A DNA stretch of 23,702 nucleotides from a virus. Taxonomy: Duplodnaviria > Heunggongvirae > Uroviricota > Caudoviricetes. The notes beneath the pieces are model-generated. The model was not told the origin of the DNA, searched no databases, and worked only from the letters and a program-made list of their open reading frames with translations. Shown here piece by piece: positions 4,915 through 16,550 of the stretch. Position numbers and translations under genes: made by a program. The stretch lies in IMG/VR virus record IMGVR_UViG_2645727555_000014. One strand, 5' to 3'. Position 1 is the first letter of the stretch, and the number at the start of each line of letters is the position of its first letter.

Positions 4915-5682
4915 TCACCCCATAGATATCGAGGTTTCGGTAATAATACGTTTTGCGTCCAACTCCCATGCTGTGATCACGTCTGCAATCACACTTATCG
5001 GCGCTTGTGTGGCATAAATACGCTCTTCTCCAATTGGTGCTGAAACATCCGTAAAGCCGACTTCTTTGGAATCCTGTATCGAGCAAATCAGCGGGACCGG
5101 GACACGAACAAGGTGAGTGGTTGCTTCAAATTGTGTACCTGTCATCAGGCGAAGCCGTGCGCCCAGCGAATTACACATCAGACTCATGGTCGCTTTATCA
5201 GTTGCCATTAACGTAACGTCATACGTCAGAATGGCCTGGGTGTATTCCAGTTCTGCTAAAGGCATTCCGGTATCCGGTTCGCAAAAACTGGCTACTTTTT
5301 TGCGGTCAATCTGCTGATCATCGTTGATATAATTGATATCCATAGTGCGTGAGATATTGACCAGGGGGAGAGCATCCCGGTTAATGTTCTGGTTTTCAGG
5401 TTTTCTCCCTTGCCCGGCATTTGCGCGACGAACTGCTTTAAGAAACTCGATCGCATTGTCGAAACGGGCCACATAGACACGCTCTGCTGGTGGACGATTC
5501 AGGAATGACGCAAAGCGTTTTTCTTCCGGCGCGGGGGCCACCAGTAAGATATCAGAAAAAATGTTGCTGATTAGCGTCGCAAACGCGTTATCCACGTTTT
5601 CAAAGCCCGTGGTCTGGAATTTTCCTGTGCGTGAGGTTTGCCATTCACCTGTTCGCGCCAGGAGGGTTTTATTTGAAGTCAT
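4915..5682 (-). CDS. hypothetical phage protein (255 aa)
   Basis: ATG at 5682 overlaps the upstream stop (ATGA). No family recognised. Confidence 0.55.
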   Translation of the reverse strand: MTSNKTLLARTGEWQTSRTGKFQTTGFENVDNAFATLISNIFSDILLVAPAPEEKRFASFLNRPPAERVYVARFDNAIEFLKAVRRANAGQGRKPENQNINRDALPLVNISRTMDINYINDDQQIDRKKVASFCEPDTGMPLAELEYTQAILTYDVTLMATDKATMSLMCNSLGARLRLMTGTQFEATTHLVRVPVPLICSIQDSKEVGFTDVSAPIGEERIYATQAPISVIADVITAWELDAKRIITETSISMG

Positions 5683-6470
5683 TCGATCACTCCGTTTTGA
5701 GTCGTATCAAAATTCCTAGCAGGTATGCAGTAGTAAAGCGAACCAACATGCTGTGTGCCGTAGCTAAAAATACGGTGCACGTACCACCAGCGGCGCGCTA
5801 CGCCGTTTACCATCTCTTCATTCCATTCAAGAATTGAGCCGACGGGGACGTTATTTGCTGCAATACGCAGAATCAGAACATCATCGGTTAAGCCATCCTG
5901 CTCACCGTCTGCGTCAATCGCATGGAAAGAGTCACGCCCGTCAGGGTTATCCAGCACATAAACGATTTCAGGTTCCTGGTAAGTCAGTTCGCGTTGGTTG
6001 TTATCCAGTTCAGTGAATGACTCTTCTCCTGTTTCGTCGCTGACTACCCCATATGTGCCAACATCTGGTCGATATAAGAGAGCCTGAAACGCGTCTGGGC
6101 TGGATTCAATAATCAGCATCCAGTCTGCGCGGATTTGGTCGTTAAAGGCTTTATGCCCGTTATAGCGTGCTTTTAACTGTGGAGTCGGTTCTCTGCCAGC
6201 CAGGGAAGATGGAAGTATGGCTATATCTGATTCGCCAGCATCCGGAGTAAGGCCACCGTTGCTATCAGCAAAATTATCATGGCTATCAGCTTTGGCGGCG
6301 GGTTGCTCTTCCAGAATGCTGAATGAATCCGAACCTGTATTGCCATGTTCCGGCGCGCCTCCTGCATTCGCTTCAATCGGCGCTGGCGTTTCTCTCTGCG
6401 TGCTGTCATGTTCTGACTCCTTACTTGCCAGGTTTGCATCGTCAGCAAACCATTCGTCAAAACGGCCCAT
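5679..6470 (-). CDS. hypothetical acidic phage protein, first gene of the leftward operon
   Basis: ORF runs to 6482 with a TTG; start set at ATG 6470 preceded by AGGA. Low-complexity acidic central region. Stop overlaps the next start. Confidence 0.5.
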   Translation of the reverse strand: MGRFDEWFADDANLASKESEHDSTQRETPAPIEANAGGAPEHGNTGSDSFSILEEQPAAKADSHDNFADSNGGLTPDAGESDIAILPSSLAGREPTPQLKARYNGHKAFNDQIRADWMLIIESSPDAFQALLYRPDVGTYGVVSDETGEESFTELDNNQRELTYQEPEIVYVLDNPDGRDSFHAIDADGEQDGLTDDVLILRIAANNVPVGSILEWNEEMVNGVARRWWYVHRIFSYGTQHVGSLYYCIPARNFDTTQNGVIE

Positions 6471-6559
6471 AAGCATCCTCAAAGGTCGATCTGTCAGGTA
6501 TCGAAAGGAAGATTTTCTGGAGATTGTGATTTTGGATGAAGGAGGAGGAATTCATAAAA

Positions 6560-6587
6560 TGCACTTGCGCACAGTGCAACGGTGCGC
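6560..6587. promoter_or_regulatory. overlapping palindromes in the divergent promoter region upstream of higB (candidate HigA operator)
   Basis: TGCACT-tgcgcac-AGTGCA (6560-6578) and gcgcac/gtgcgc (6567-6572 / 6582-6587), located about 45-70 nt upstream of the higB start. Confidence 0.3.
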
Positions 6588-6632
6588 TATAGTTATGGCA
6601 TTCGGTAATCATCACGGAGGATCAAATGACTA

Positions 6633-6935
6633 ATGACCAAAAAAATTAACATAAAGGATTTCAGGGATGCGTGGCTTGATGATTTTTTTGAATTTTCAAC
6701 ACCACATAGAAAGATACCTCCTGATATTCATATGACATTGTCACGGAAGTTGGACATTATCAATGCCGCAACTACCTGTAAGGATTTAAGATCACCACCA
6801 GGTAATCGGTATGAGGAACTGTCAGGGAAGCTAAATGGCTATTCATCAGTAAGGGTGAATAAGCAATATAGGTTAATTTTTAAGTGGGTTAACGGAAAGG
6901 CCGAGGACTTGTATCTCGACCCTCACAAATACTAA
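6633..6935 (+). CDS. higB: type II toxin, HigB family (RelE/ParE superfamily, plasmid maintenance killer type)
   Basis: 100 aa, N-terminus MTKKINIKDFRDAWLDDFF and ...YRLIFKWVNGKAEDLYLDPHKY are typical of the HigB family. Followed by a HigA-type HTH antitoxin gene (toxin-first order typical of higBA). Confidence 0.8.
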   Translation: MTKKINIKDFRDAWLDDFFEFSTPHRKIPPDIHMTLSRKLDIINAATTCKDLRSPPGNRYEELSGKLNGYSSVRVNKQYRLIFKWVNGKAEDLYLDPHKY

Positions 6936-7005
6936 AACAGATACCCGGTTACGGACCGGGTTCTGACCAGAGTCCACTTAATACGCACGCTAGTAAGGGC
7001 AAAAA

Positions 7006-7344
7006 ATGAAACAGGCAACCAGAAAACCGACGACCGTAGGTGATATCCTGCTGTACGAATACCTGGAGCCGTTAGAGCTGAAGATCAACGAGTTGGCAGA
7101 AATACTTCATGTTCATCGTAACACCGTAAGTGCTCTTGTTAATAATAATCGTAAGCTAACGATGGATATGGCATATCGCCTGGCAAAAGCATTCGATACT
7201 TCTGTAGATTTTTGGATTAATCTTCAGACCGCAGTAGACCTGTGGGAAGTCGAAAATGATATGCGCGTTCAGGAAGAGTTAAGTCGTATCAATACTGCTG
7301 AAAAATTTATTTCTCAGCGGAACCTGAATAAAAAAGCAGCCTGA
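7006..7344 (+). CDS. higA: type II antitoxin HigA (XRE-type HTH)
   Basis: 112 aa; TVGDILLYEYLEPLELKINELAEILHVHRNTVSALVNNNRKLTMDMAYRLAKAFDTSVDFWINLQTAVDLW fits the HigA addiction-module antidote family pattern. AAGGG SD upstream. Confidence 0.85.
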   Translation: MKQATRKPTTVGDILLYEYLEPLELKINELAEILHVHRNTVSALVNNNRKLTMDMAYRLAKAFDTSVDFWINLQTAVDLWEVENDMRVQEELSRINTAEKFISQRNLNKKAA

Positions 7345-7365
7345 TATAGTAAAACACATACAAAA

Positions 7366-7394
7366 AGCCCACTTAGCAAGTGGGCTTTCCTTTG
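7366..7394 (+). terminator. hairpin after higA (terminator or attenuator)
   Basis: Stem agcccact (7366-7373), loop tagca, stem agtgggct (7379-7386), then ttcctttg. The next start codon (7401) follows directly. Confidence 0.5.
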
Positions 7395-7400
7395 TAATTA

Positions 7401-7760
7401 ATGAACATTAAACCTATCCGTACAGAACAAGATTATGAGGCCGCACTGCGTGCGGTCGAACCGATGTTCGATAACGAACCGGAAATGAATACTCCGGAAG
7501 GTGATTTCTTTGAGGTTATGAGTCTTCTCATTGAGGAGTACGAGAAAAAACATTACCCAATTGAGCCACCATCACCTATTGAGGCCATTAAATTCCGTAT
7601 GGAACAGCAAGGGCTGACCGTGAAGGATCTGGAACCGGCGATTGGTAAGTCAAATCGTGTTTACGAAGTGCTAAATGGGACACGAAATTTGACGTTACCT
7701 ATGATTCGCCGTTTACATTCCCAGCTTGGCATTCCTCTTGAAAGCTTGGTTGGTATTTGA
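7401..7760 (+). CDS. HTH DNA-binding protein resembling E. coli K-12 HigA (YgjM)-type antitoxins; no cognate toxin adjacent
   Basis: 119 aa. IRTEQDYEAALRAVEPMF and C-terminal GLTVKDLEPAIGKSNRVYEVLNGTRNLTLPMIRRLHSQLGIPLESL resemble the K-12 HigA (YgjM) HTH region as I recall it. No SD; an in-frame TAA sits just upstream at 7395-7397. Confidence 0.65.
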   Translation: MNIKPIRTEQDYEAALRAVEPMFDNEPEMNTPEGDFFEVMSLLIEEYEKKHYPIEPPSPIEAIKFRMEQQGLTVKDLEPAIGKSNRVYEVLNGTRNLTLPMIRRLHSQLGIPLESLVGI

Positions 7761-7822
7761 GTTTGGTGGTCTGGATGACCGCTATTTTCATAAAATAGAT
7801 ATTAGAAATCACGGTAGTTTAT

Positions 7823-8551
7823 ATGAATACAGATTCATCAACAGAAAAATTGACTGAAAATGATCTAATCAAAGTATCTTTTGGAGATGCCATAAAAGAC
7901 AAGCTTTTTAATAAAGTGTTTGCATATATATTAATTTCTTTTCTAATTATTAATTGGAAAGATATACTAATATTGATGAAGTCAAAGGATGATATCCTAT
8001 ATACTTTATCTGTAACATTTGTTGGAGGTAAGATTCCTCTAGTTTATGAAGGCGTTTTGTCTCCTTGGCTTTATCATTTTTGCTTGCCATTTATTTTTGG
8101 AATTATTGCATCAATTGCAGCTCCGATTGTCACTCTTTGCGTATCAAAGCTAACAAGTAAAATATATACAGAGATAAGGTATTTGGATGCCGACATGGAT
8201 CAAAATAAAAGAAAGGCGTTGCAAATAAAAGAGACTGAAATAATAAAAAGTATTAATGATACACAATTCAACAAAAGAATTATGGATGAAAATAAAAATG
8301 AACTTGAGAGATTGCTTAGGCAGCAAAAAGAGATTATGGCGGCAATAAAGTTATTATATGATGATGTTGGAGTTATCATTGAGCTTTTTAAAAGTAGAGG
8401 GGTTGGTATTGACTCCCCAGAAAAGTTATATGATTTTGTAATGGCAATAAAGAAGACTTCGCTTTATAATGGCGATCATGATTTTAATAAATTGGTTGCT
8501 GATATTTCAAATTTATTTGATAAAACGGAAATTGATTTTTCAAAAAGATGA
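7823..8551 (+). CDS. hypothetical membrane protein: two predicted TM helices followed by a long charged coiled-coil-like C-terminal region
   Basis: 242 aa; hydrophobic segments VFAYILISFLIINW and LYHFCLPFIFGIIASIAAPIVTLCV, then a K/E/D-rich region (...KRKALQIKETEIIKSINDTQFNKRIMDENKNELERLLRQQKEIMAAIKLL...). Gene is visibly AT-rich relative to flanks. No family recognised. Confidence 0.65.
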   Translation: MNTDSSTEKLTENDLIKVSFGDAIKDKLFNKVFAYILISFLIINWKDILILMKSKDDILYTLSVTFVGGKIPLVYEGVLSPWLYHFCLPFIFGIIASIAAPIVTLCVSKLTSKIYTEIRYLDADMDQNKRKALQIKETEIIKSINDTQFNKRIMDENKNELERLLRQQKEIMAAIKLLYDDVGVIIELFKSRGVGIDSPEKLYDFVMAIKKTSLYNGDHDFNKLVADISNLFDKTEIDFSKR

Positions 8552-8552
8552 A

Positions 8553-8575
8553 AGCCTAGCCTAGGCAGCTAGGCT
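8553..8575. terminator. hairpin between convergent genes (probable terminator for the minus-strand gene)
   Basis: 8-bp stem agcctagc / gctaggct with a 7-nt loop. On the minus strand it is followed by TTCATCTTTTTG. Confidence 0.45.
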
Positions 8576-8584
8576 ATGTGTGGT

Positions 8585-9778
8585 TTATGCTTTTTTTACA
8601 TACTCCATGAACATTTTTTCAGCTTGTGCTGGTGGTGTTCCAGCCATGACAAGCGCATCAATGAACGCCTGCTTCTTCAGTGCGAACTGATCGGCAAGGC
8701 GTTGCTGAAGCTCCTTGTTTTTCTGTTTCTCACGTTGCAAGGCCGCTTCTTTTGCTGCCGCCCGTCTTTTCTGTGCGTCTGACAACTTTCTGGCCTTGGT
8801 CAATTGGTCACGTAGTTTGTCGATCTTGCCGTTGTCCTTTGCCAGTTTTGTACTTAAAGCGGCCTGGCGCTTCTGATAGAGCCTCCATTCGCGCTTGGCA
8901 GCGTCAACGTTTGTTTTACTGTTGCGATTGCGATTAAACTCCCTCTCGTCTTCTTTTGAGAAGTGTTTGGTTGTACGGCGGCGATCGTCACCAAATGCAA
9001 TTTGCGTTGCGGCCTTTTGTAACGCACGAGCAATACTCATTTGCCAACTAGCGGACTGTAACCGCGTCATTGAGTGGATCACGTGTTTACAGGCGACGCC
9101 TTGTAGCTTAGGGTTACGAACTTTTGGATAGGCGTATTCTTTTGGCGGGGTCAGGGCAAAGTTACCCGCAGTAGCGATGTAACGATACCAGTATTGATGA
9201 CGACCACAGTCACAATCGAAAGACACCCGCCCGGCGCACAGTGATTTAGTGATTTTCAGAGCTGATTTATCGTCTTCTGCGATGTCATCGACCATCTGAT
9301 CCCATTCTTCAAAGCGTATCCGGACGATATGGTGCTGGTGGACGGATATATCCGATGCTTCTACGCGGATATTAATCACGTTGTGGCGAAGAGATACGGG
9401 TGTAGCTCTTTTGATACCAGATCCGTCATCCACGGCGTTATTTGCACGCTTAATATCGATTGCCTGGCTGGATGCCACCAGCTGGGCGTATGTGATGCCA
9501 GCCGTCTTGCTGTCATATTTTTCGCGTGTTTTACTCCGTAGCTTTTCGAAACCTTTCAGGTCGTCTCGCGTGAAGAACGTGCCGCCTTTTTTCTTCCCTA
9601 ACTTGAGAATATCTTCGGCGGATTTGTTCCTCAGTCTACCTGGCGTCAGCGTCCGGTGAGCTTGTCGGCGCTTACGGGTTTGTTCTTTCCTGATAAGGTC
9701 GAATAAACGCGTGAAGTCCTTAGAGGACAGGCCGTCAGTGATATAGCGCCCGTCCTGGTTTTTCAGGAAATCAGGCAT
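8585..9778 (-). CDS. hypothetical phage protein with SWIM-like zinc-finger signature and Lys/Arg-rich coiled-coil C-terminus
   Basis: 397 aa. FDCDCGRHQYWYRYI...VACKHVIHS gives a C-x-C-x(n)-C-x-H spacing. C-terminal ~100 aa strongly basic and heptad-like (KREWRLYQKRQAALSTKLAKDNGKIDKLRDQLTKARKLSDAQKRRAAAKEAALQREKQKNKELQQRL). Confidence 0.55.
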   Translation of the reverse strand: MPDFLKNQDGRYITDGLSSKDFTRLFDLIRKEQTRKRRQAHRTLTPGRLRNKSAEDILKLGKKKGGTFFTRDDLKGFEKLRSKTREKYDSKTAGITYAQLVASSQAIDIKRANNAVDDGSGIKRATPVSLRHNVINIRVEASDISVHQHHIVRIRFEEWDQMVDDIAEDDKSALKITKSLCAGRVSFDCDCGRHQYWYRYIATAGNFALTPPKEYAYPKVRNPKLQGVACKHVIHSMTRLQSASWQMSIARALQKAATQIAFGDDRRRTTKHFSKEDEREFNRNRNSKTNVDAAKREWRLYQKRQAALSTKLAKDNGKIDKLRDQLTKARKLSDAQKRRAAAKEAALQREKQKNKELQQRLADQFALKKQAFIDALVMAGTPPAQAEKMFMEYVKKA

Positions 9779-11082: not shown

Positions 11083-11427
11083 TGTCCTTCCTCCACGGAT
11101 GACGGATACAAAAAAAGGCCGCACATGGCGGCCTGCTTTGGCGTTATGACTCCCTACCGCGCTTCGGCTGAAAGTTAATCGTCAAAAGAACCTTCAACGG
11201 GAGCCGTTAGCGCGATGGATTATGTGCAGTTTGTGATTTCCAAAATAGTGTCAACCACTTTTTATGGATTTTATTTTTTGACCGAAATTTGGCCTAAATC
11301 ATGTTGATTTGGCTGATTATTTTTATAACATAAAAGTCATTTTGATTGCATGAAGGACGGTGCAGTGAAGTTAAGGGTTTTAGGGACCGCGCTCGCGGCT
11401 AAGATGGTAAAGTATGGAGTTAATGAA

Positions 11428-12261
11428 ATGTTTTTTATAAAAAATGGAAAAAGATGTTCCTCAACAATACTTGCTACTGTTGTTGCTCTCTCTGTTCCCA
11501 CATTTGCCTTTGCTTATGATTTTAGCAAAATTGACTGCAATGCCCCTAAAACCAGACAGATGTTAATCGATGATTATAATGAACTGCTGAAGGACGATCA
11601 GGAAGCAATCTCTGTAATTGATGCTTATAATCAGATCAATGAGATAAGAGAAAAAAATAAGCTCCAATGCCTGGGAACGTATGAATTCTCAGATGGAAGT
11701 GCGCTTAGGGTTAGATATAAGTTATATTTAAATAGCCTCGGCACACCCATATATGAATTTGCTCCAGTTGAGGAATTAACGCAAGATGATGTAAGCGCAT
11801 CTATTCATAATTCCCCTGCAACTCCTGCAAGCATGGCTGGACATGATAAAAAAAATAATGGTGAAACGTATGCCTGTAAGGTGGCTGTAACTTACAAGGG
11901 GGAGCGTTCTAACTATATGGGGGATTCCGGAACATGGGATCGTGTGATTACTGACTATGGCACTTATTTTTCATGGGATTTGCCACGCGGAAACCGAGGC
12001 AACAGCACAGGTCAGGATGCTTTTAGTGGCATGGACGAATCAAAGCCTGTATTAGAAAATCAGCTAGTGAGAAAGGAAACTGAAAAAGATGGTAGCGTGG
12101 TTGATGAATTTAGGACTGATGTAAGTTATGGGGAAAAACAACCAGTTCATAAGTTTGTATATGCTCGTAGAATAAAACCTACAGGCATGAGAGAGTATTA
12201 TGTTACGGATTTAACAGACAAGCGGGCGTTTATGTTTCTGAATTGTCAGAGAGATTCGTGA
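11428..12261 (+). CDS. exported hypothetical protein (signal peptide, four Cys), AT-rich moron
   Basis: Start set at ATG 11428 (GGAG upstream) giving MFFIKNGKRCSSTILATVVALSVPTFAFA-YDF: a classic n/h/c signal peptide with AFA cleavage motif. Mature protein has 4 Cys. Gene and upstream region visibly AT-rich. Confidence 0.65.
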   Translation: MFFIKNGKRCSSTILATVVALSVPTFAFAYDFSKIDCNAPKTRQMLIDDYNELLKDDQEAISVIDAYNQINEIREKNKLQCLGTYEFSDGSALRVRYKLYLNSLGTPIYEFAPVEELTQDDVSASIHNSPATPASMAGHDKKNNGETYACKVAVTYKGERSNYMGDSGTWDRVITDYGTYFSWDLPRGNRGNSTGQDAFSGMDESKPVLENQLVRKETEKDGSVVDEFRTDVSYGEKQPVHKFVYARRIKPTGMREYYVTDLTDKRAFMFLNCQRDS

Positions 12262-12268
12262 TTGACAT

Positions 12269-12297
12269 AGCAGGCTTACTATTAAGCCTGCTTTTTG
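12269..12297. terminator. bidirectional rho-independent terminator between convergent genes
   Basis: 10-bp perfect stem agcaggctta / taagcctgct with loop ctat, followed by a T-run (12293-12296). Confidence 0.8.
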
Positions 12298-12300
12298 GCT

Positions 12301-12660
12301 TTACTCGGTAATAGTTTTGCAGTTGTTTTGATTTAATGACAATCCTAGCTTGCTAGCAGCCAACTCATTTTCTGTGTGAGAACCAGCAAAAATGAAGCCT
12401 TGTTTTATCTTATTTACGGTGAAATATTTATTATACATGAACGCCCAGATAAATGAGGCAATCCACGGGCCAATTCCGGCTGTGAGGAATGCCAGTATCA
12501 GCATCACTACAAATACCCCAATAAAAGTTATAAAGTCTTTCCTGAACAAAGCTGGAAAAGCACCAAACAAGAATGTAGTCCAGGAAAAACCATAAAAACC
12601 GGTGATTGATTCGCCAGTTTGAGGGTTTTCAAGTTTAATTTTAGTAGCCACGATTACCAT
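12301..12660 (-). CDS. small inner-membrane protein (two to three predicted TM helices)
   Basis: 119 aa; hydrophobic segments FSWTTFLFGAFPALF, FIGVFVVMLILAFLTAGIGPWIASFIWAFMY. Start may be ATG 12660 or the GTG three codons downstream. Family not identified with certainty. Confidence 0.55.
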   Translation of the reverse strand: MVIVATKIKLENPQTGESITGFYGFSWTTFLFGAFPALFRKDFITFIGVFVVMLILAFLTAGIGPWIASFIWAFMYNKYFTVNKIKQGFIFAGSHTENELAASKLGLSLNQNNCKTITE

Positions 12661-12796
12661 CCTTTTACATAAAAAACATAGAGTTATAGTGCTGTGTGAG
12701 ATTCTAATGTTACTAATTTACACTTTGTAATGCAATTAAATAACTTTAGGCAGTGGAAGTAACTATTCGTGGCAGACTATCGTTAAGATCTTTCAA

Positions 12797-13081
12797 TTAT
12801 GGTTGCTGTAAGTGGAGGGGAACAGCCTGTTCTATCATCTCGCGTATCAAGCCAACTTCAAGTAGTTCCTCGTATTCCCAGTATCTGTTTGTCACCAGAT
12901 CCAGGCTGGCTATGACCTTGTGCCGGTCATTCGGCATAGCCAATTTTTCTGCTATAACCATCAGTGAAAACTCTTCATCCAGTAGAATTTGATAGCAGTT
13001 TTTTGATAGTTCCACTTCCCTTATGAGACTGAAACGTCGCTGGATTGTGGCAGCAGAGTAAGTGAAATCTATTTTCTTCAT
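12797..13081 (-). CDS. hypothetical protein (94 aa)
   Basis: ORF-track M corresponds to a TTG codon at 13081 with no clear SD; first in-frame ATG is ~40 codons in. Real start uncertain. Confidence 0.35.
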   Translation of the reverse strand: MKKIDFTYSAATIQRRFSLIREVELSKNCYQILLDEEFSLMVIAEKLAMPNDRHKVIASLDLVTNRYWEYEELLEVGLIREMIEQAVPLHLQQP

Positions 13082-13140: not shown

Positions 13141-14082
13141 TTAACTAACAATCCAGTCCGTAGCAACAACATCCTCTGGAGCTAAATCAATCGCATGGAT
13201 TTTCCCATCCCGGATAGTGCGCCAGTGCTTTCGTGATCCACCTTCGGGCCACACCCATACACCTTCAGGCCAGGATGCTCGACGGCATACGATTGCATAG
13301 CCTGTTTTAATCCTCTCTCTGGCGGTATGCAACGACAGGTTTGCCTTTGGACTTTCAGGCACAGGATGGTGGATTGCCTGAAACATCCCCATCTTTGGAT
13401 GATACCAGCGTTTATTGCGTGGTTCTGCCTCCGACATCACCTGCTTAAAGGCTTTCCGGAAGGGGGCCAGGGCCACAATGGAGCGTCGCGCAAGCAAACC
13501 ATCGGGAGTTAAAAACTCATGCGTATCGGTGGGAATCCGGTAAGCGTTGACCAGGTTGCGGCATTTGGCTTCAGTCAGGCCACATTTCGCCGCCAGCTGG
13601 CGGTAGCCAATGTAGCCTTCCGGAATATTGCCTTTCTTTATTTGCTCGAGTGTTTCAGCGACCATCGATACTTGTGCTGATACCTCGGCTACCTGGGCAT
13701 TTACGGCGTTGATCCGGCGTTCATGCTCAAGATGCATTTGCGCCATTTCAGCCAGGATTTCGGCTTTTGATTTTAACTGTACCCGGGCATTCTCCAGTTC
13801 GCGCCAGCGGTCCACCAGCCGGGCGGTAAATTCGGGAGAGAGCTGCGCGACGACGACAATACTATCGCGCTTGCCTTGTTCGCCTTCGAAGACGTAAGCC
13901 TCGACACTACGGCGTAGTCCTAAATTATTGATTTTTTCGAAAACCTCAATTTGAGGAAATCGGACAACGCCGCCTTTGGCTAATGTCTCAATAGTGCGTT
14001 TCACATTGTCATGACGCTTACCTACCAGTTCTGCGATCTCAATACTGGTCATTGTCGCTTTGCGAGAGATGGGCAGATTCAT
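13141..14082 (-). CDS. phage antirepressor, Rha family N-terminal domain with C-terminal extension
   Basis: 313 aa; N-terminal TMTSIEIAELVGKRHDNVKRTIETL matches the phage regulatory protein Rha family signature as I recall it. GGAGG SD; ATG overlaps the stop of the upstream small ORF (TGATG). Confidence 0.8.
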   Translation of the reverse strand: MNLPISRKATMTSIEIAELVGKRHDNVKRTIETLAKGGVVRFPQIEVFEKINNLGLRRSVEAYVFEGEQGKRDSIVVVAQLSPEFTARLVDRWRELENARVQLKSKAEILAEMAQMHLEHERRINAVNAQVAEVSAQVSMVAETLEQIKKGNIPEGYIGYRQLAAKCGLTEAKCRNLVNAYRIPTDTHEFLTPDGLLARRSIVALAPFRKAFKQVMSEAEPRNKRWYHPKMGMFQAIHHPVPESPKANLSLHTARERIKTGYAIVCRRASWPEGVWVWPEGGSRKHWRTIRDGKIHAIDLAPEDVVATDWIVS

Positions 14083-14297: not shown

Positions 14298-14455
14298 ATT
14301 GGCAGCCTCCTTTGACTGTGAACGATACCACCGCCGAAGAGACCAATCTTACTGGCGGTGGACTGTGTGGAGTTGGTCTTACCGGCGTCAAAGGGAACCG
14401 GCGCTTCCGAAGAAGCCACCACACAGCCCACCATTGATAGGCGTGCGAGTGCGCC
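14298..14455 (-). promoter_or_regulatory. highly structured leader / candidate regulatory RNA upstream of the antirepressor operon
   Basis: On the transcribed (minus) strand: 13/14-bp long-range helix (14357-14370 with 14419-14432), GCUUC-UUCG-GAAGC hairpin (14403-14416), an 8-bp stem ccaccgcc/ggcggtgg (14328-14335 / 14354-14361) that competes with the long helix, and GAUUGGUCUC in the loop of that stem. Confidence 0.35.
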
Positions 14456-14460
14456 GACAA

Positions 14461-14483
14461 CAAAAAAGACGCTTGTGGCGTCT
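14461..14483 (-). terminator. rho-independent terminator (minus strand)
   Basis: Minus strand reads AGACGC-cacaa-GCGTCT followed by TTTTTTG. About 105 nt downstream of the small minus-strand gene ending at 14589. Confidence 0.5.
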
Positions 14484-14588
14484 ATGTGTCGCCTTTGACA
14501 TTACCGGGAGACCAATCCCGGCACCCGTTTTTCTAAGGTGCCGTAGAAATATACCCCACGATAATGCCAGGGCGCAACAGTCAGTATT

Positions 14589-15087: not shown

Positions 15088-15666
15088 CTAATTTATCAAT
15101 TCAATCGCCATCTGATACAACGCCATTTCATCGGCATTGTGCCGTATGAAATCAGCTTTTCCGCCTATTTTTCCATCAGCATGAACAGGGACCAGCCAGG
15201 GATATTGTTCTCGGACCTCGGCTGGCGCTGCGTACTGGTGGTGCCATTTACACAAAGGGAGGACATATTTATGCGCGTTCTCTGCCGTTCTCCCGAAGAT
15301 ATGGTGCAGGGATACTACTGGGCTATGTTGCCCGTGAATATGGCAGGCAATGCAGGGGAGAGTACCGATAGCGGTCTGTATCCGGCGTTCATCGGCTGTG
15401 AGTGATCTGCCCTTCAGGCCGCGTGACGTGTGTGTTTTTTTGGGCGGAGCGGATACAGCTTTATCTTTTCTCCGCTGTTCATATTGCTTTGCTTTTTCAA
15501 TTTTCTTTTGCCGATATTCAGGCGATGCGGCTTTTTCTCTCGCTCGCTGCTGCTGGCGTTGAGCTTGTTGAAGGCGCTTTGCCCTTTGTTCCTCTCGCCA
15601 GGCCGGGTCAGCCAATTTTTGCATGGCTTTTTGTCTCTGTTTCTCCCAATAACTCTGTTTCTGCAT
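15088..15666 (-). CDS. Ref-like (recombination enhancement function) HNH-type nuclease
   Basis: 192 aa. Highly basic N-terminal ~80 aa (KQRQKAMQKLADPAWREEQRAKRLQQAQRQQQRAREK...), then SRGLKGRS, CIACHIHG and LCKWHH His/Cys motifs, resembling phage P1 Ref as I recall it. Confidence 0.6.
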   Translation of the reverse strand: MQKQSYWEKQRQKAMQKLADPAWREEQRAKRLQQAQRQQQRAREKAASPEYRQKKIEKAKQYEQRRKDKAVSAPPKKTHTSRGLKGRSLTADERRIQTAIGTLPCIACHIHGQHSPVVSLHHIFGRTAENAHKYVLPLCKWHHQYAAPAEVREQYPWLVPVHADGKIGGKADFIRHNADEMALYQMAIELIN

Positions 15667-15730
15667 GATGGCAGTCTCTTACTTTTCAACGATTTTTCTA
15701 TGATTGATCAAAATGGTTAGGTATTCAAAA

Positions 15731-15759
15731 TTGATTTTCTAACACAAAACATTAATATC
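15731..15759 (+). promoter_or_regulatory. promoter-like region for the rightward operon, containing the TTTTCTAACACAAA box
   Basis: TTGATT (15731-15736), box TTTTCTAACACAAAAC (15735-15750), TAATAT (15753-15758). Precedes the first ORF of the plus-strand operon by about 30 nt. Confidence 0.4.
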
Positions 15760-15786
15760 ATTCCTGATAACTGTTTGGAGGACATG

Positions 15787-15939
15787 ATGCTTATAGCTTT
15801 AAGTGCGATCCACCAGCCATCTGTGAATGAAATTGGCCTGTTCTATGTGTTGTTTTTCGGGGCGTTGGCGCTACTTGAGCTTGGTATTGAGCTTTTCGCA
15901 GTGCTTATGTTTTGCGTCACGATTTTGGGGAAATTTTGA
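15787..15939 (+). CDS. possible small hydrophobic membrane peptide (50 aa), translationally coupled to the DUF4406-like gene
   Basis: Below the ORF-track size cutoff; found by eye. GGAGGA 4 nt upstream of ATG 15787. Product MLIALSAIHQPSVNEIGLFYVLFFGALALLELGIELFAVLMFCVTILGKF. Stop TGA overlaps ATG 15939 (TGATG). Confidence 0.35.
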   Translation: MLIALSAIHQPSVNEIGLFYVLFFGALALLELGIELFAVLMFCVTILGKF

Positions 15940-16550
15940 TGGTGAAACGTGTTTTGAAAATTTACATCGCGGGGCCGATGACTGGTTATCCAGATTACAA
16001 CCGTGCTGCGTTTAATGCGAAAGCGAGCGAGCTGATGGCTGAAGGGCATATCGTTCTGAATCCAGCTGTGTTACCTGGTGGCCTTTGTCAGAGTGAATAC
16101 ATGGATATTTGCCTGGCAATGGTGCGTTCTGCTGATGCGATCTACTTGCTCAATCGATGGGAGGAATCGATTGGTGCTCGTGCAGAGCACGCGCTGGCTG
16201 AAAAGCTGGGGCTGACTGTAATTTATGAGTCACCAACCAACATTGAATGCCAGGTTGCTCCGCATATTTACCGGGAACTGGTCAATGCACTGCGTGATAT
16301 CGCTGCTGTATATCACGGTACAGAACAGCTTCGTGAGCGTTTAGCCCATACCATTTCCTATTACCTGTCTTTATCTCATGAGCACAAGCTCCGCCAGAAG
16401 GTAATGATCAAATTTATCATGAGGTTATCGAAATCCCTGGCAAACGCCGATCCAAAGAATCCATTACCGAAAGAGGCAATGAATTACCTGAAGTCCTGCA
16501 ACGTTGTTTCTGAAGATGGCGTTCTTTTGGTTAGAAGGAGTTCTGCGTGA
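15939..16550 (+). CDS. DUF4406-like (nucleoside 2-deoxyribosyltransferase-like fold) protein with additional C-terminal region
   Basis: N-terminal ~100 aa (KIYIAGPMTGYPDYNRAAFNAKASEL...NPAVLP...ADAIYLLNRWEESIGARAEHALAEKLGLTV) fits DUF4406 as I recall it; about 100 further residues follow. Start set at ATG 15939 rather than 15912 because of the overlap with the small ORF stop. Confidence 0.65.
   Translation: MVKRVLKIYIAGPMTGYPDYNRAAFNAKASELMAEGHIVLNPAVLPGGLCQSEYMDICLAMVRSADAIYLLNRWEESIGARAEHALAEKLGLTVIYESPTNIECQVAPHIYRELVNALRDIAAVYHGTEQLRERLAHTISYYLSLSHEHKLRQKVMIKFIMRLSKSLANADPKNPLPKEAMNYLKSCNVVSEDGVLLVRRSSA

Follow-up and report, generated by a model that had tools for sequence, protein, structure and literature searches.

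Does the AT-rich gene among the tail genes of a P1-family phage-plasmid encode an antiphage effector, and does the HTH gene in front of it serve as its regulator? The original prediction, made from sequence, joined the two in a regulator–effector unit carried as prophage cargo next to a complete higB–higA pair. The window analysed here is a stretch of 23,702 nucleotides from a Caudoviricetes virus. Both open reading frames lie where they had been placed, at 7401–7760 (119 aa) and 7823–8551 (242 aa) on the plus strand. The second is indeed far richer in AT than its neighbours, with a GC content of 0.293 against 0.44 in the HTH gene upstream and 0.49 in the tail gene downstream. The element that carries them is a P1-family (D6-type) phage-plasmid, or plasmid prophage, and sequence comparison finds phage D6 99.5% identical to the window. 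The genes form a plus-strand island with the order higB (PF05015), higA, 119 aa HTH gene, 242 aa gene. To its left lies a tail gene, the homologue of P1 gene 7 (5679–6482, minus strand; phrog_1906, tail protein, 1.6e-116), annotated in D6 as 'similar to P1 gene 7'. To its right lies a second tail gene, the homologue of P1 gene 25 (8585–9778, minus strand; phrog_1722, 5e-196; 57% identical to P1 gp25), also identified by the D6 annotation. In P1 itself genes 7 and 25 are adjacent, 3 nt apart, in the LP26 late operon. The description as accessory cargo is borne out; by this comparison the island is mosaic cargo, apparently inserted antisense into the late tail operon of a D6-type phage-plasmid.

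The first two island genes are a complete higB–higA pair, as had been claimed, and form a predicted type II toxin–antitoxin module of the Rts1 type. The RelE-like HigB toxin (6633–6935, plus strand) matches PF05015 over its full length (4.4e-35) and phrog_3066, 'toxin of TA system' (3.7e-37), and has no PADLOC match. Its cognate HigA antitoxin (7006–7344, plus strand) has an N-terminal HTH (TIGR02607, antidote_HigA, 7.9e-30, above the cut-off; PF01381, 7e-11) and follows the toxin directly on the same strand after a gap of 70 nt. A perfect 11-bp hairpin at 7364–7388, terminator-like on both strands (RNA fold −17.9 kcal/mol, z = −5.4), closes this unit 12 nt 5' of the next start codon. Homology with the type B loci of sister plasmids (L003–L005) ends at 6532 and restarts at 7394. 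The plus-strand segment between these breakpoints, 6533–7393, contains a promoter region, the Rts1-type higB and higA and the terminator. It appears to be a swapped-in cassette that took the place of the PF09907 higB and operator-bearing promoter known from the sister plasmids.

The 119 aa HTH protein, here called HigA2 (7401–7760, plus strand), has the architecture of the Escherichia coli K-12-type HigA: an N-terminal toxin-binding half is followed by a C-terminal HTH (HTH_3 at residues 63–115). Residues 6–112 align with the HigA of PDB 5ycl/5ifg (E 6e-7), and the protein is 97% identical to the HigA that follows a PF09907 HigB in L003–L005. In the sister plasmids this toxin lies directly 5' of the K-12-type HigA; it is found at the same site in L003–L005, L025–L027, L029 and L031. 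The window has no cognate PF09907 HigB directly upstream of HigA2, in agreement with the earlier description of a HigA-type protein lacking its adjacent toxin. Because the PF09907 toxin and the autoregulated promoter have been replaced, HigA2 is an orphan antitoxin under relaxed selection. The pN/pS ratio of the gene is 0–0.02 where the toxin is present versus 0.08–0.26 in orphans, and strong purifying selection is confined to loci with PF09907 HigB. The locus sequence, invariably plasmid-borne, is present in 95 of 5,426 complete E. coli genomes, and only 19 of the 95 have the full toxin–antitoxin pair. On roughly half of these plasmids the HTH gene consists of its first ~65 codons only, followed by a full-length membrane gene. 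Other orphan alleles carry a nonsense codon (L024) or a frameshift (L028), and in every case the membrane reading frame is intact. Once orphaned, HigA2 decays and the membrane gene keeps its reading frame.

The ancestral (type B) promoter carries twin, palindromic copies of the HigA operator TCCCAnnnTGGGA. No such operator precedes the membrane gene, where the sole near match is a one-mismatch site inside the coding end of HigA2; the whole window contains two one-mismatch sites, no more than expected by chance. No convincing sigma-70 promoter for the membrane gene was found in the window, consensus matches being no commoner than in shuffled sequence. The gene lies behind two hairpins: the one at 7364–7388 that closes the Rts1-type unit, and a small one with a short T-run at 7764–7784 (plus strand; fold −14.5 kcal/mol, z = −4.9), which separates HigA2 from the membrane gene. 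The latter is conserved in L003–L005 and L020–L031, and lineage C has different hairpins at the same position. The hairpin said to close the module exists at 8553–8576, between the convergent 242 aa and tail genes (fold −15 kcal/mol; z = −3.3 on the minus strand and −1.2 on the plus strand). With the better T-run on the minus strand, it would rather serve the convergent tail gene, or both genes, as a terminator. HigA2 does not appear to be a dedicated regulator of the gene that follows it.

The 242 aa protein belongs to a hypervariable family of membrane and coiled-coil proteins. Its gene is preceded by a weak ribosome-binding site. It matches phrog_8191 (6e-115); matches of the family extend over five PHROGs, all of unknown function. 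The protein had been called unassignable, and it has stayed so under profile and structure searches. Neither it nor 31 relatives match a Pfam or NCBIfam family, and no Pfam family recurs in the 32 members. Six members have no match among the 5,027 PADLOC models (PADLOC-DB v2.0.0), and one further member has weak coiled-coil matches only (E ≥ 0.001). In PADLOC, HigA2 has a partial PD-Lambda-2_B match and the 242 aa protein none. The structural model of the protein has no match in the PDB or BFVD (solved and viral predicted structures). Known membrane effectors and exclusion proteins in PADLOC-DB v2.0.0 and Pfam, including SLATT, have no sequence match to the family. A literature search found no paper on the protein or on a cassette of HigBA plus a membrane protein.

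Two N-terminal transmembrane helices had been proposed. The segment at about 82–108 is strongly hydrophobic in every family member by hydropathy. The segment at 32–50 is weaker: it reaches Kyte–Doolittle values of 1.8–1.9 in most D6-site alleles, but one such allele and the distant members fall short of the threshold. Two helices are plausible, and one alone is firm. As to the charged coiled-coil tail, residues 108–242 contain 24 K/R and 24 D/E, a nearly balanced charge, and the AlphaFold2 model (25-sequence alignment, pLDDT 77.2) has a continuous helix over residues 81–193 followed by two short helices, with confidence in the helical core. An earlier model from 5 sequences (pLDDT 59.8) was too poor for use. 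With a marginal first hydrophobic helix and near-balanced charge, membrane topology is uncertain; we infer both the topology and the expression of the protein. A conserved membrane core (residues 25–112) precedes a hypervariable coiled coil, probably cytoplasmic, and a small C-terminal domain. Within the core S39, N44, W45, P89, G93 and P101 are invariant or near-invariant across the 32 members, down to 14% identity.

Variation in the family is concentrated outside this core. The D6 site is occupied by at least seven alleles with 33–78% identity, between flanks that are 95–100% identical. Mean allele identity is 62% in the membrane core versus 27% in the coiled coil, and the variable segment starts just 3' of the conserved hairpin at 7764–7784. 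All seven D6-site alleles are AT-rich (GC 0.29–0.33), so AT-richness characterises the gene family rather than being noise. An exhaustive profile search of 1.84 billion proteins yielded 56 representative homologues at E<1e-3. A word-indexed search recovered few of the distant relatives by comparison, and the genomic contexts given here are a limited subset. A scan of reference genomes yielded one locus. Among isolated phages D6 alone carries a homologue (tblastn), and P2 orf30 is not one.

The predicted co-occurrence of the two genes holds in part. HigA-linked copies are found on D6-like phage-plasmids, another phage-plasmid-like element, IncFIB plasmids and a Leclercia chromosome. Here the membrane gene follows three HigBA lineages, 27–54% identical to each other, with constant adjacency and a gap of 40–100 nt after HigA. 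Other copies, however, have no HTH gene. Solitary copies without an HTH neighbour are found in P2-like prophages, between gpS and gpV, and in an integrase islet; the tail genes of P2 are reported to contain a hotspot for defence systems and accessory genes (10.64898/2026.02.27.708500). Another solitary copy lies in the end of a Pantoea prophage near the O-antigen-modifying gtrABC, and one is found beside MmeI-type restriction, DruA (Druantia) and resolvase genes. A distant homologue is located among housekeeping genes, again without an HTH gene. The membrane gene itself is truncated or disrupted in L023, L029 and the Klebsiella plasmid L006. In L006, the one such plasmid examined, IS903B cuts the membrane gene and HigBA is intact; an N-terminal-only match of this kind is typical of most of the 55 Klebsiella plasmid matches. 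Taken over these contexts, persistence of the membrane gene does not seem to depend on the antitoxin HigA2.

The sister loci suggest how the present arrangement may have arisen. The ancestral unit would have comprised three genes, encoding a PF09907-type HigB toxin, a K-12-type HigA antitoxin and the membrane protein. The first two would be close relatives of PD-lambda-2 component A and of the N-terminal module of component B. The type B partner toxin (L003) matches PADLOC PD-Lambda-2_A over its full length (2.6e-42), and HigA2 matches PD-Lambda-2_B (5.3e-44) at profile positions 1–119 of 402. In the lineage of the window, the toxin and promoter would then have been exchanged for a complete Rts1-type higBA with its own terminator. 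An independent, parallel toxin swap is found in L042, where HigA and the membrane gene are also retained. At the D6 site the membrane gene itself may be exchanged as a cassette among the alleles.

Several known systems provide the closest comparisons. PD-lambda-2, a validated abortive-infection defence system, has three genes (Vassallo et al. 2022, PMC9519451): the first product is HigB-like, the second joins a HigA-HTH to an ImmA/IrrE peptidase, and the third is P4-antitoxin-like. Its defence requires the third gene (PMC9519451). The present family shares with it the order of toxin-like, HigA-like and third gene on mobile elements, as well as the two component matches described above. It differs in that the window locus has no ImmA/IrrE peptidase domain, none being found by Pfam or PADLOC in HigA2 or downstream. 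Component A is absent from the window, which has a PF05015 HigB instead. The third gene encodes an unrelated membrane/coiled-coil protein, with no PADLOC match to the P4-antitoxin-like component C. E. coli K-12 HigB–HigA (YgjN–YgjM; PDB 5ifg, 5ycl) has in common with HigA2 the two-domain HigA, and the sister loci have its matching PF09907 toxin and twin-palindrome promoter. In the window both toxin and promoter are gone, and a third gene follows the antitoxin. The K-12 higBA locus is not known to have such a third gene. Toxin–antitoxin–chaperone (TAC) systems (HigBAC, CmdTAC) are likewise ordered toxin, antitoxin, accessory protein, with control of the antitoxin and phage sensing assigned to the third protein (PMC11980606, PMC9519451). 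Unlike theirs, the third gene of the present locus does not encode a SecB-like protein (no match in Pfam or NCBIfam); its product is hypervariable and predicted to be membrane-bound, and the gene outlasts the loss of toxin and antitoxin. In Caulobacter, higX likewise lies downstream of higBA, but is unrelated. Exclusion proteins of the inner membrane are also encoded by prophage 'morons' inserted among tail genes, HK97 gp15 being one. The 242 aa gene is like such morons in being a small AT-rich tail-region gene of a temperate phage with a predicted inner-membrane product. The likeness is one of description, and the 242 aa protein is much larger, with a long, probably cytoplasmic coiled coil.

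What, then, is the membrane gene for? Low GC content, a weak ribosome-binding site and lack of a family assignment might suggest a mere open frame in an AT-rich spacer. The frame nevertheless stays open at similar length in alleles with as little as 33–78% identity, the six core residues are kept across 32 members, and 56 representative homologues and a confident helical core argue for a real gene. Conservation of the reading frame refutes the spacer reading, and its probability is negligible. The original prediction would have the HTH protein repress or neutralise a toxic membrane effector that kills the infected cell. Constant close adjacency in all HigA-linked copies agrees with this, as does the joint retention of HigA and membrane gene through two independent HigB replacements (window type and L042); the two may work together. 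A dedicated two-gene unit is nonetheless quite improbable and is not upheld as proposed. The supposed regulator is a toxin-less antitoxin, repeatedly inactivated by truncation, nonsense mutation or frameshift beside an intact membrane gene. It is under relaxed pN/pS in orphans and strong purifying selection solely alongside the PF09907 HigB. Moreover, the ancestral operator motif is missing from the membrane-gene leader, and solitary homologues have no HTH neighbour.

Two further readings deserve mention. The membrane protein could be the third component of a tripartite toxin–antitoxin defence system, in the manner of PD-lambda-2 or TAC, which senses phage or controls the antitoxin. Its variable domain would detect a phage cue and free HigB to shut down translation. 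In the window such a system would be crippled by the loss of its own toxin, or re-wired to the incoming higBA. Across three divergent HigBA lineages, on four kinds of replicon, toxin, antitoxin and third gene keep this order on one strand. HigA divergence between lineages (27–54%) is similar to that of the membrane protein (28–33%), as expected from long co-inheritance. Genes 1 and 2 match PD-Lambda-2_A and the N-terminal part of PD-Lambda-2_B, and PD-lambda-2 defence depends on a third gene (PMC9519451). Against this stand the intact membrane genes without their toxin and with HigA2 truncated, nonsense-mutated or frameshifted, the solitary copies in prophages and islets, and the intact HigBA in the one examined Klebsiella plasmid with an IS903B-cut membrane gene. 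The tripartite reading is unlikely. It is also conceivable that the protein acts outside phage conflict, as a lysogenic-conversion or envelope-modifying factor, or as a plasmid-maintenance or host-fitness gene that hitch-hikes beside addiction modules. Toxin–antitoxin (addiction) modules are known to stabilise cargo of any kind beside them. The family has no similarity to known defence proteins (PADLOC); one homologue lies beside gtrABC, a classic conversion region, and another amid housekeeping genes. We consider this reading unlikely, given extreme allele diversification outside the membrane core between near-identical flanks, which is more typical of arms-race genes, and the recurrence of the gene at accessory sites of phages where defence genes are frequent.

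The reading favoured here, held with moderate confidence and argued from context and evolutionary pattern, is that the 242 aa protein may be a self-sufficient prophage membrane protein for phage exclusion or abortive defence. The location of its family in prophage accessory slots, in one case beside restriction and Druantia genes, and the kinship of the HTH protein with a PD-lambda-2 component make such a role a fair hypothesis. The protein would be made from the prophage in the lysogen and protect the cell or plasmid against other phages. By one route, the variable cytoplasmic part would recognise a phage product and the conserved membrane core would disturb the inner membrane, causing abortive infection. 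By another, the protein would block genome entry at the inner membrane, as in superinfection exclusion. In the intact cassette, infection-driven de-repression of the toxin–antitoxin promoter could raise expression of the membrane gene by read-through of the small hairpin. A bolder extension is offered tentatively. The protein might found a family of single-gene inner-membrane sensor–effectors (five PHROGs, no Pfam entry), in which rival phages, perhaps sibling phage-plasmids, are recognised in an allele-specific way through the hypervariable coiled coil and C-terminal domain. Placed ancestrally behind a PD-lambda-2-type HigBA promoter and boosted by infection-induced de-repression, it would represent a new modular coupling of an addiction module to a membrane immune effector.

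Should the protein prove to act in exclusion or defence, the prophage-borne immune repertoire would gain a new, widely scattered family. Its range covers P1/D6-like and other phage-plasmids, P2-like and other prophages, IncFIB plasmids and small islands. A defensive role would also explain a sharply hypervariable spot in plasmids of about 2% of completely sequenced E. coli, and PD-lambda-2-type HigBA modules would be shown to accept different third genes. Whatever the function, the locus is a clean natural experiment in toxin–antitoxin evolution: the toxin has been swapped, the antitoxin decays in various ways and the downstream gene is maintained.

Four plus-strand genes make up the locus. 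The first two form the complete higB–higA pair that had been predicted upstream: a 100-aa PF05015 HigB (6633-6935, +; Pfam, 4.4e-35) and its 112-aa HigA partner (7006-7344, +; TIGR02607, 7.9e-30; HTH_3). Past this pair sits a perfect 11-bp hairpin (7364-7388; -17.9 kcal/mol, z = -5.4), with 12 nt from its end to the next start codon. HigA2 (119 aa, 7401-7760, +), a small conserved hairpin (7764-7784; -14.5 kcal/mol) and the membrane gene (242 aa, 7823-8551, +) follow. ORF calling placed both of these genes exactly where the original prediction had them, and the AT-richness noted for the second is real: its GC is 0.293, and the profile stays at ~0.30 over 7800-8600 between flanks of 0.41-0.51. 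Over 2.4 kb, the identity to the P1-family plasmid prophage Escherichia phage D6 is 99.5%. Among complete E. coli genomes, 102 of 5,426 match the stretch, on plasmids of ~90 kb and on no chromosome. In D6, the four genes sit between two tail genes of the minus strand, which the annotation gives as homologues of P1 genes 7 and 25. Genes 7 and 25 of P1 are separated by 3 nt within the same LP26-driven late operon, so the four genes form an island inserted antisense into the tail operon, consistent with the proposed prophage accessory cargo. Upstream of the gene 7 homologue, an inverted repeat, TGCACTGTGCGCAAGTGCA, followed by TTTTAT, lies on the minus strand at 6560-6578. Because the island splits gene 7 from gene 25, the gene 7 homologue may require a separate late promoter in this arrangement.

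Other features of the window include a second low-GC patch (11200-13000, 0.35-0.42). It holds two genes that fall in PHROGs of unknown function: one of 303 aa, which the D6 annotation calls simB-like (a superimmunity accessory function), and one of 119 aa on the minus strand. Next to an Ant anti-repressor gene (13141-14082, -), Rfam detects C4 antisense RNA (14351-14438, -; 75 bits) and isrK (14462-14541, -; 60 bits); the stretch is the P1-type immI (c4-icd-ant) immunity region. A low-GC intergenic stretch at 15400-16000 lies between genes for a Ref-like RecA-filament endonuclease (15088-15666, -) and a nucleoside 2-deoxyribosyltransferase-like protein (15912-16550, +).

HigA2 carries its HTH in the C-terminal half (Pfam scan), and residues 6-112 align with the solved E. 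coli K-12 HigA (5ycl, 5ifg; 6e-7). No PF09907 HigB lies beside it, which upholds its description as a toxin-less HigA-type gene; the locus holds a canonical Rts1-type higBA together with a K-12-type HigA that lacks its toxin. The history of this arrangement is visible in sister plasmids, reached via homologues of the 242-aa protein. At the D6 site, between the gene 7 and gene 25 homologues, these carry a 100-aa PF09907 HigB (a full-length PD-Lambda-2_A match in PADLOC, 2.6e-42), then a 119-aa HigA 97% identical to HigA2, then a membrane-protein homologue. DNA comparison sets the limits of homology with the window at 6532 and 7394. By these breakpoints, the PF05015 higBA and its terminator have displaced the PF09907 higB together with its promoter. 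In the sister plasmids this promoter has two TCCCAnnnTGGGA palindromes around -35/-10-like elements, the classic layout of an autoregulated toxin–antitoxin operon. A search for the motif across the window gave no exact copies, and one-mismatch sites did not exceed chance frequency. Island anatomy and history are well supported.

The membrane protein falls in no described family. Pfam, NCBIfam and PADLOC scans gave no family match for it or its relatives, and structure searches of PDB and BFVD returned nothing resembling it, in line with the original view that it could not be assigned. When 1.84 billion representatives were searched exhaustively with a profile, only 56 proteins reached E<=1e-3, most of them 200-290 aa long. 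All 32 members of one alignment match phrog_8191 and many match four further PHROGs, all five being of 'unknown function'. That alignment has invariant residues at N44, P89 and P101 and near-invariant ones at S39 and G93; a second alignment, of 25 members, adds W45 to the near-invariant set. Two TM helices had been proposed. By hydropathy, the segment at ~82-108 is strong in every family member, whereas that at 32-50 is weaker: most D6-site alleles exceed the threshold there, but one of these alleles and the distant relatives do not. Charges near the segments are almost balanced, with K/R in slight excess N-terminal to the first helix and past the second one, which would place both termini in the cytoplasm. 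The AlphaFold2 model (pLDDT 77, 25-sequence alignment) has short helices to residue 67, a small hairpin, a helix at 81-193 and two short C-terminal helices.

At the D6 site, at least seven membrane alleles, 33-78% identical, occur between flanks that are 95-100% identical. Mean identity among them is 62% in the membrane core (25-112), 27% in the coiled coil and 37% in the C-terminal part. The divergent segment starts directly past the 7764-7784 hairpin, and lineage C has unrelated hairpins in the equivalent position. A single allele class can occur behind both toxin types (for example, homologous loci L003 and L020; L005 and L024), which argues that toxin and membrane cassettes reassort independently around a constant HigA2. 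The pS of HigA2 (<=0.27) is far too low for its neighbour's 33-60% protein identity, so the alleles are old lineages that recombination has exchanged, or evolve very fast, or both. The membrane gene is not intact everywhere: two D6-like viral contigs, L023 (3859-4440) and L029 (4001-4444), have shortened ORFs of 193 and 147 aa in allele classes otherwise of 246-259 aa.

Three lineages, with HigA identities of only 27-54% between them, place the membrane gene behind a K-12-type HigA: D6-like phage-plasmids of E. coli and Salmonella; Enterobacter D6-like plasmids, Klebsiella IncFIB plasmids and a Leclercia chromosome, the last as a 2-kb islet flanked by a two-component system and an ABC transporter; and a 97-kb phage-plasmid-like contig of Pseudocitrobacter. 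In Klebsiella pneumoniae plasmid pQDE2-C (L006, 4938-6765), the one such plasmid examined, IS903B splits the membrane-gene homologue and leaves HigB–HigA intact; most of the 55 Klebsiella plasmid matches listed are likewise N-terminal-only (residues 8-126). A relative of the Pseudocitrobacter element (L042, 2822-5720) has a TacA-like/GNAT pair and a ParE/HTH pair in place of HigB, and retains HigA at 96% and the membrane gene at 68% identity. This repeats the event in the window, the toxin swapped and HigA and membrane gene kept. Its three tandem toxin–antitoxin-type units upstream of the membrane gene indicate that the promoter-proximal slot of the cassette seems to collect such modules. Solitary membrane genes, with no HigBA, are found in the gpS–gpV slot of P2-like prophages of Klebsiella and Rahnella; in a Pantoea prophage, downstream of umuDC-like genes and near gtrABC; in an integrase/IS3 islet; beside an MmeI-type restriction enzyme, DruA and a resolvase; and, in one copy, amid housekeeping genes. 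Co-resident genes in the gpS–gpV slot encode 247 aa in Klebsiella (L036, 5833-6576, -; a weak HNH_5 hint only) and 254 aa in Rahnella (L041, 3638-4402, -), the latter recorded as DUF6650, an assignment that found no support in a Pfam scan at E<=0.001. P2-like accessory and defence hotspots in late and tail genes are described in a 2026 preprint (10.64898/2026.02.27.708500); the gpS–gpV slot may be one of these.

The original prediction joined HigA2 and the membrane protein as regulator and effector, a reading that can be weighed against the fate of HigA2 once its toxin is lost. A survey of 32 loci distinguishes four arrangements. Type A (the window, D6 and six others) has PF05015 higBA, intact HigA2 and the membrane gene; type A' (ten loci) shares this layout, with HigA2 ending after ~65 codons and annotated in RefSeq as a pseudogene. 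Type B (eight loci) has PF09907 HigB, HigA2 and the membrane gene, and type C (four loci) a different PF09907-like HigB, a 139-aa HigA and the membrane gene. Purifying selection on HigA2 is very strong in type B (pN/pS 0-0.02, with pS reaching 0.27). Among orphans pN/pS is 0.08-0.26, and a nonsense codon is present in L024 and a frameshift in L028. Among the complete E. coli genomes, 95 plasmids have HigA2 sequence, 19 of them as the full type B pair; by an estimate from evenly spaced entries, about a quarter of HigA2-bearing plasmids have an intact orphan and about half a truncated one. The membrane ORF stays full length in loci where orphan HigA2 is truncated, nonsense-mutated, frameshifted or relaxed, which tells against the proposed pairing. 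The simplest reading is that selection keeps HigA2 to neutralize its own toxin and that it drifts once the toxin is gone, the membrane protein requiring it neither as antidote nor as activator.

Of described systems the nearest is PD-lambda-2, which comprises a HigB-like protein, a HigA-like HTH–ImmA/IrrE peptidase fusion and a P4-antitoxin-like protein; abortive defence against lambda requires all three (Vassallo et al., PMC9519451). PADLOC finds none of the three defining components in the window. It gives the 242-aa protein no match, and HigA2 covers only positions 1-119 of the 402-position PD-Lambda-2_B profile (5.3e-44), corresponding to its HigA module minus the peptidase. Nor is the locus a TAC system. 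The likeliest role for the membrane protein, at about even odds, is interference with other phages as a prophage product sufficient by itself. Rival readings are a genuine tripartite defence built on HigBA, the regulator–effector pair of the original prediction, and an accessory role outside defence. The variable, probably cytoplasmic part might sense and the conserved core disturb the membrane; alternatively, genome entry might be blocked at the inner membrane. A promoter scan for the membrane gene of the window gave nothing convincing, and the gene sits behind two hairpins. Where the cassette is intact, read-through transcription from the autoregulated toxin–antitoxin promoter would reach it, tying membrane-protein level to antitoxin state. 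The locus is a prophage accessory cassette linked to HigBA, with an uncharacterized, hypervariable membrane protein. The pattern is suggestive and directly testable.
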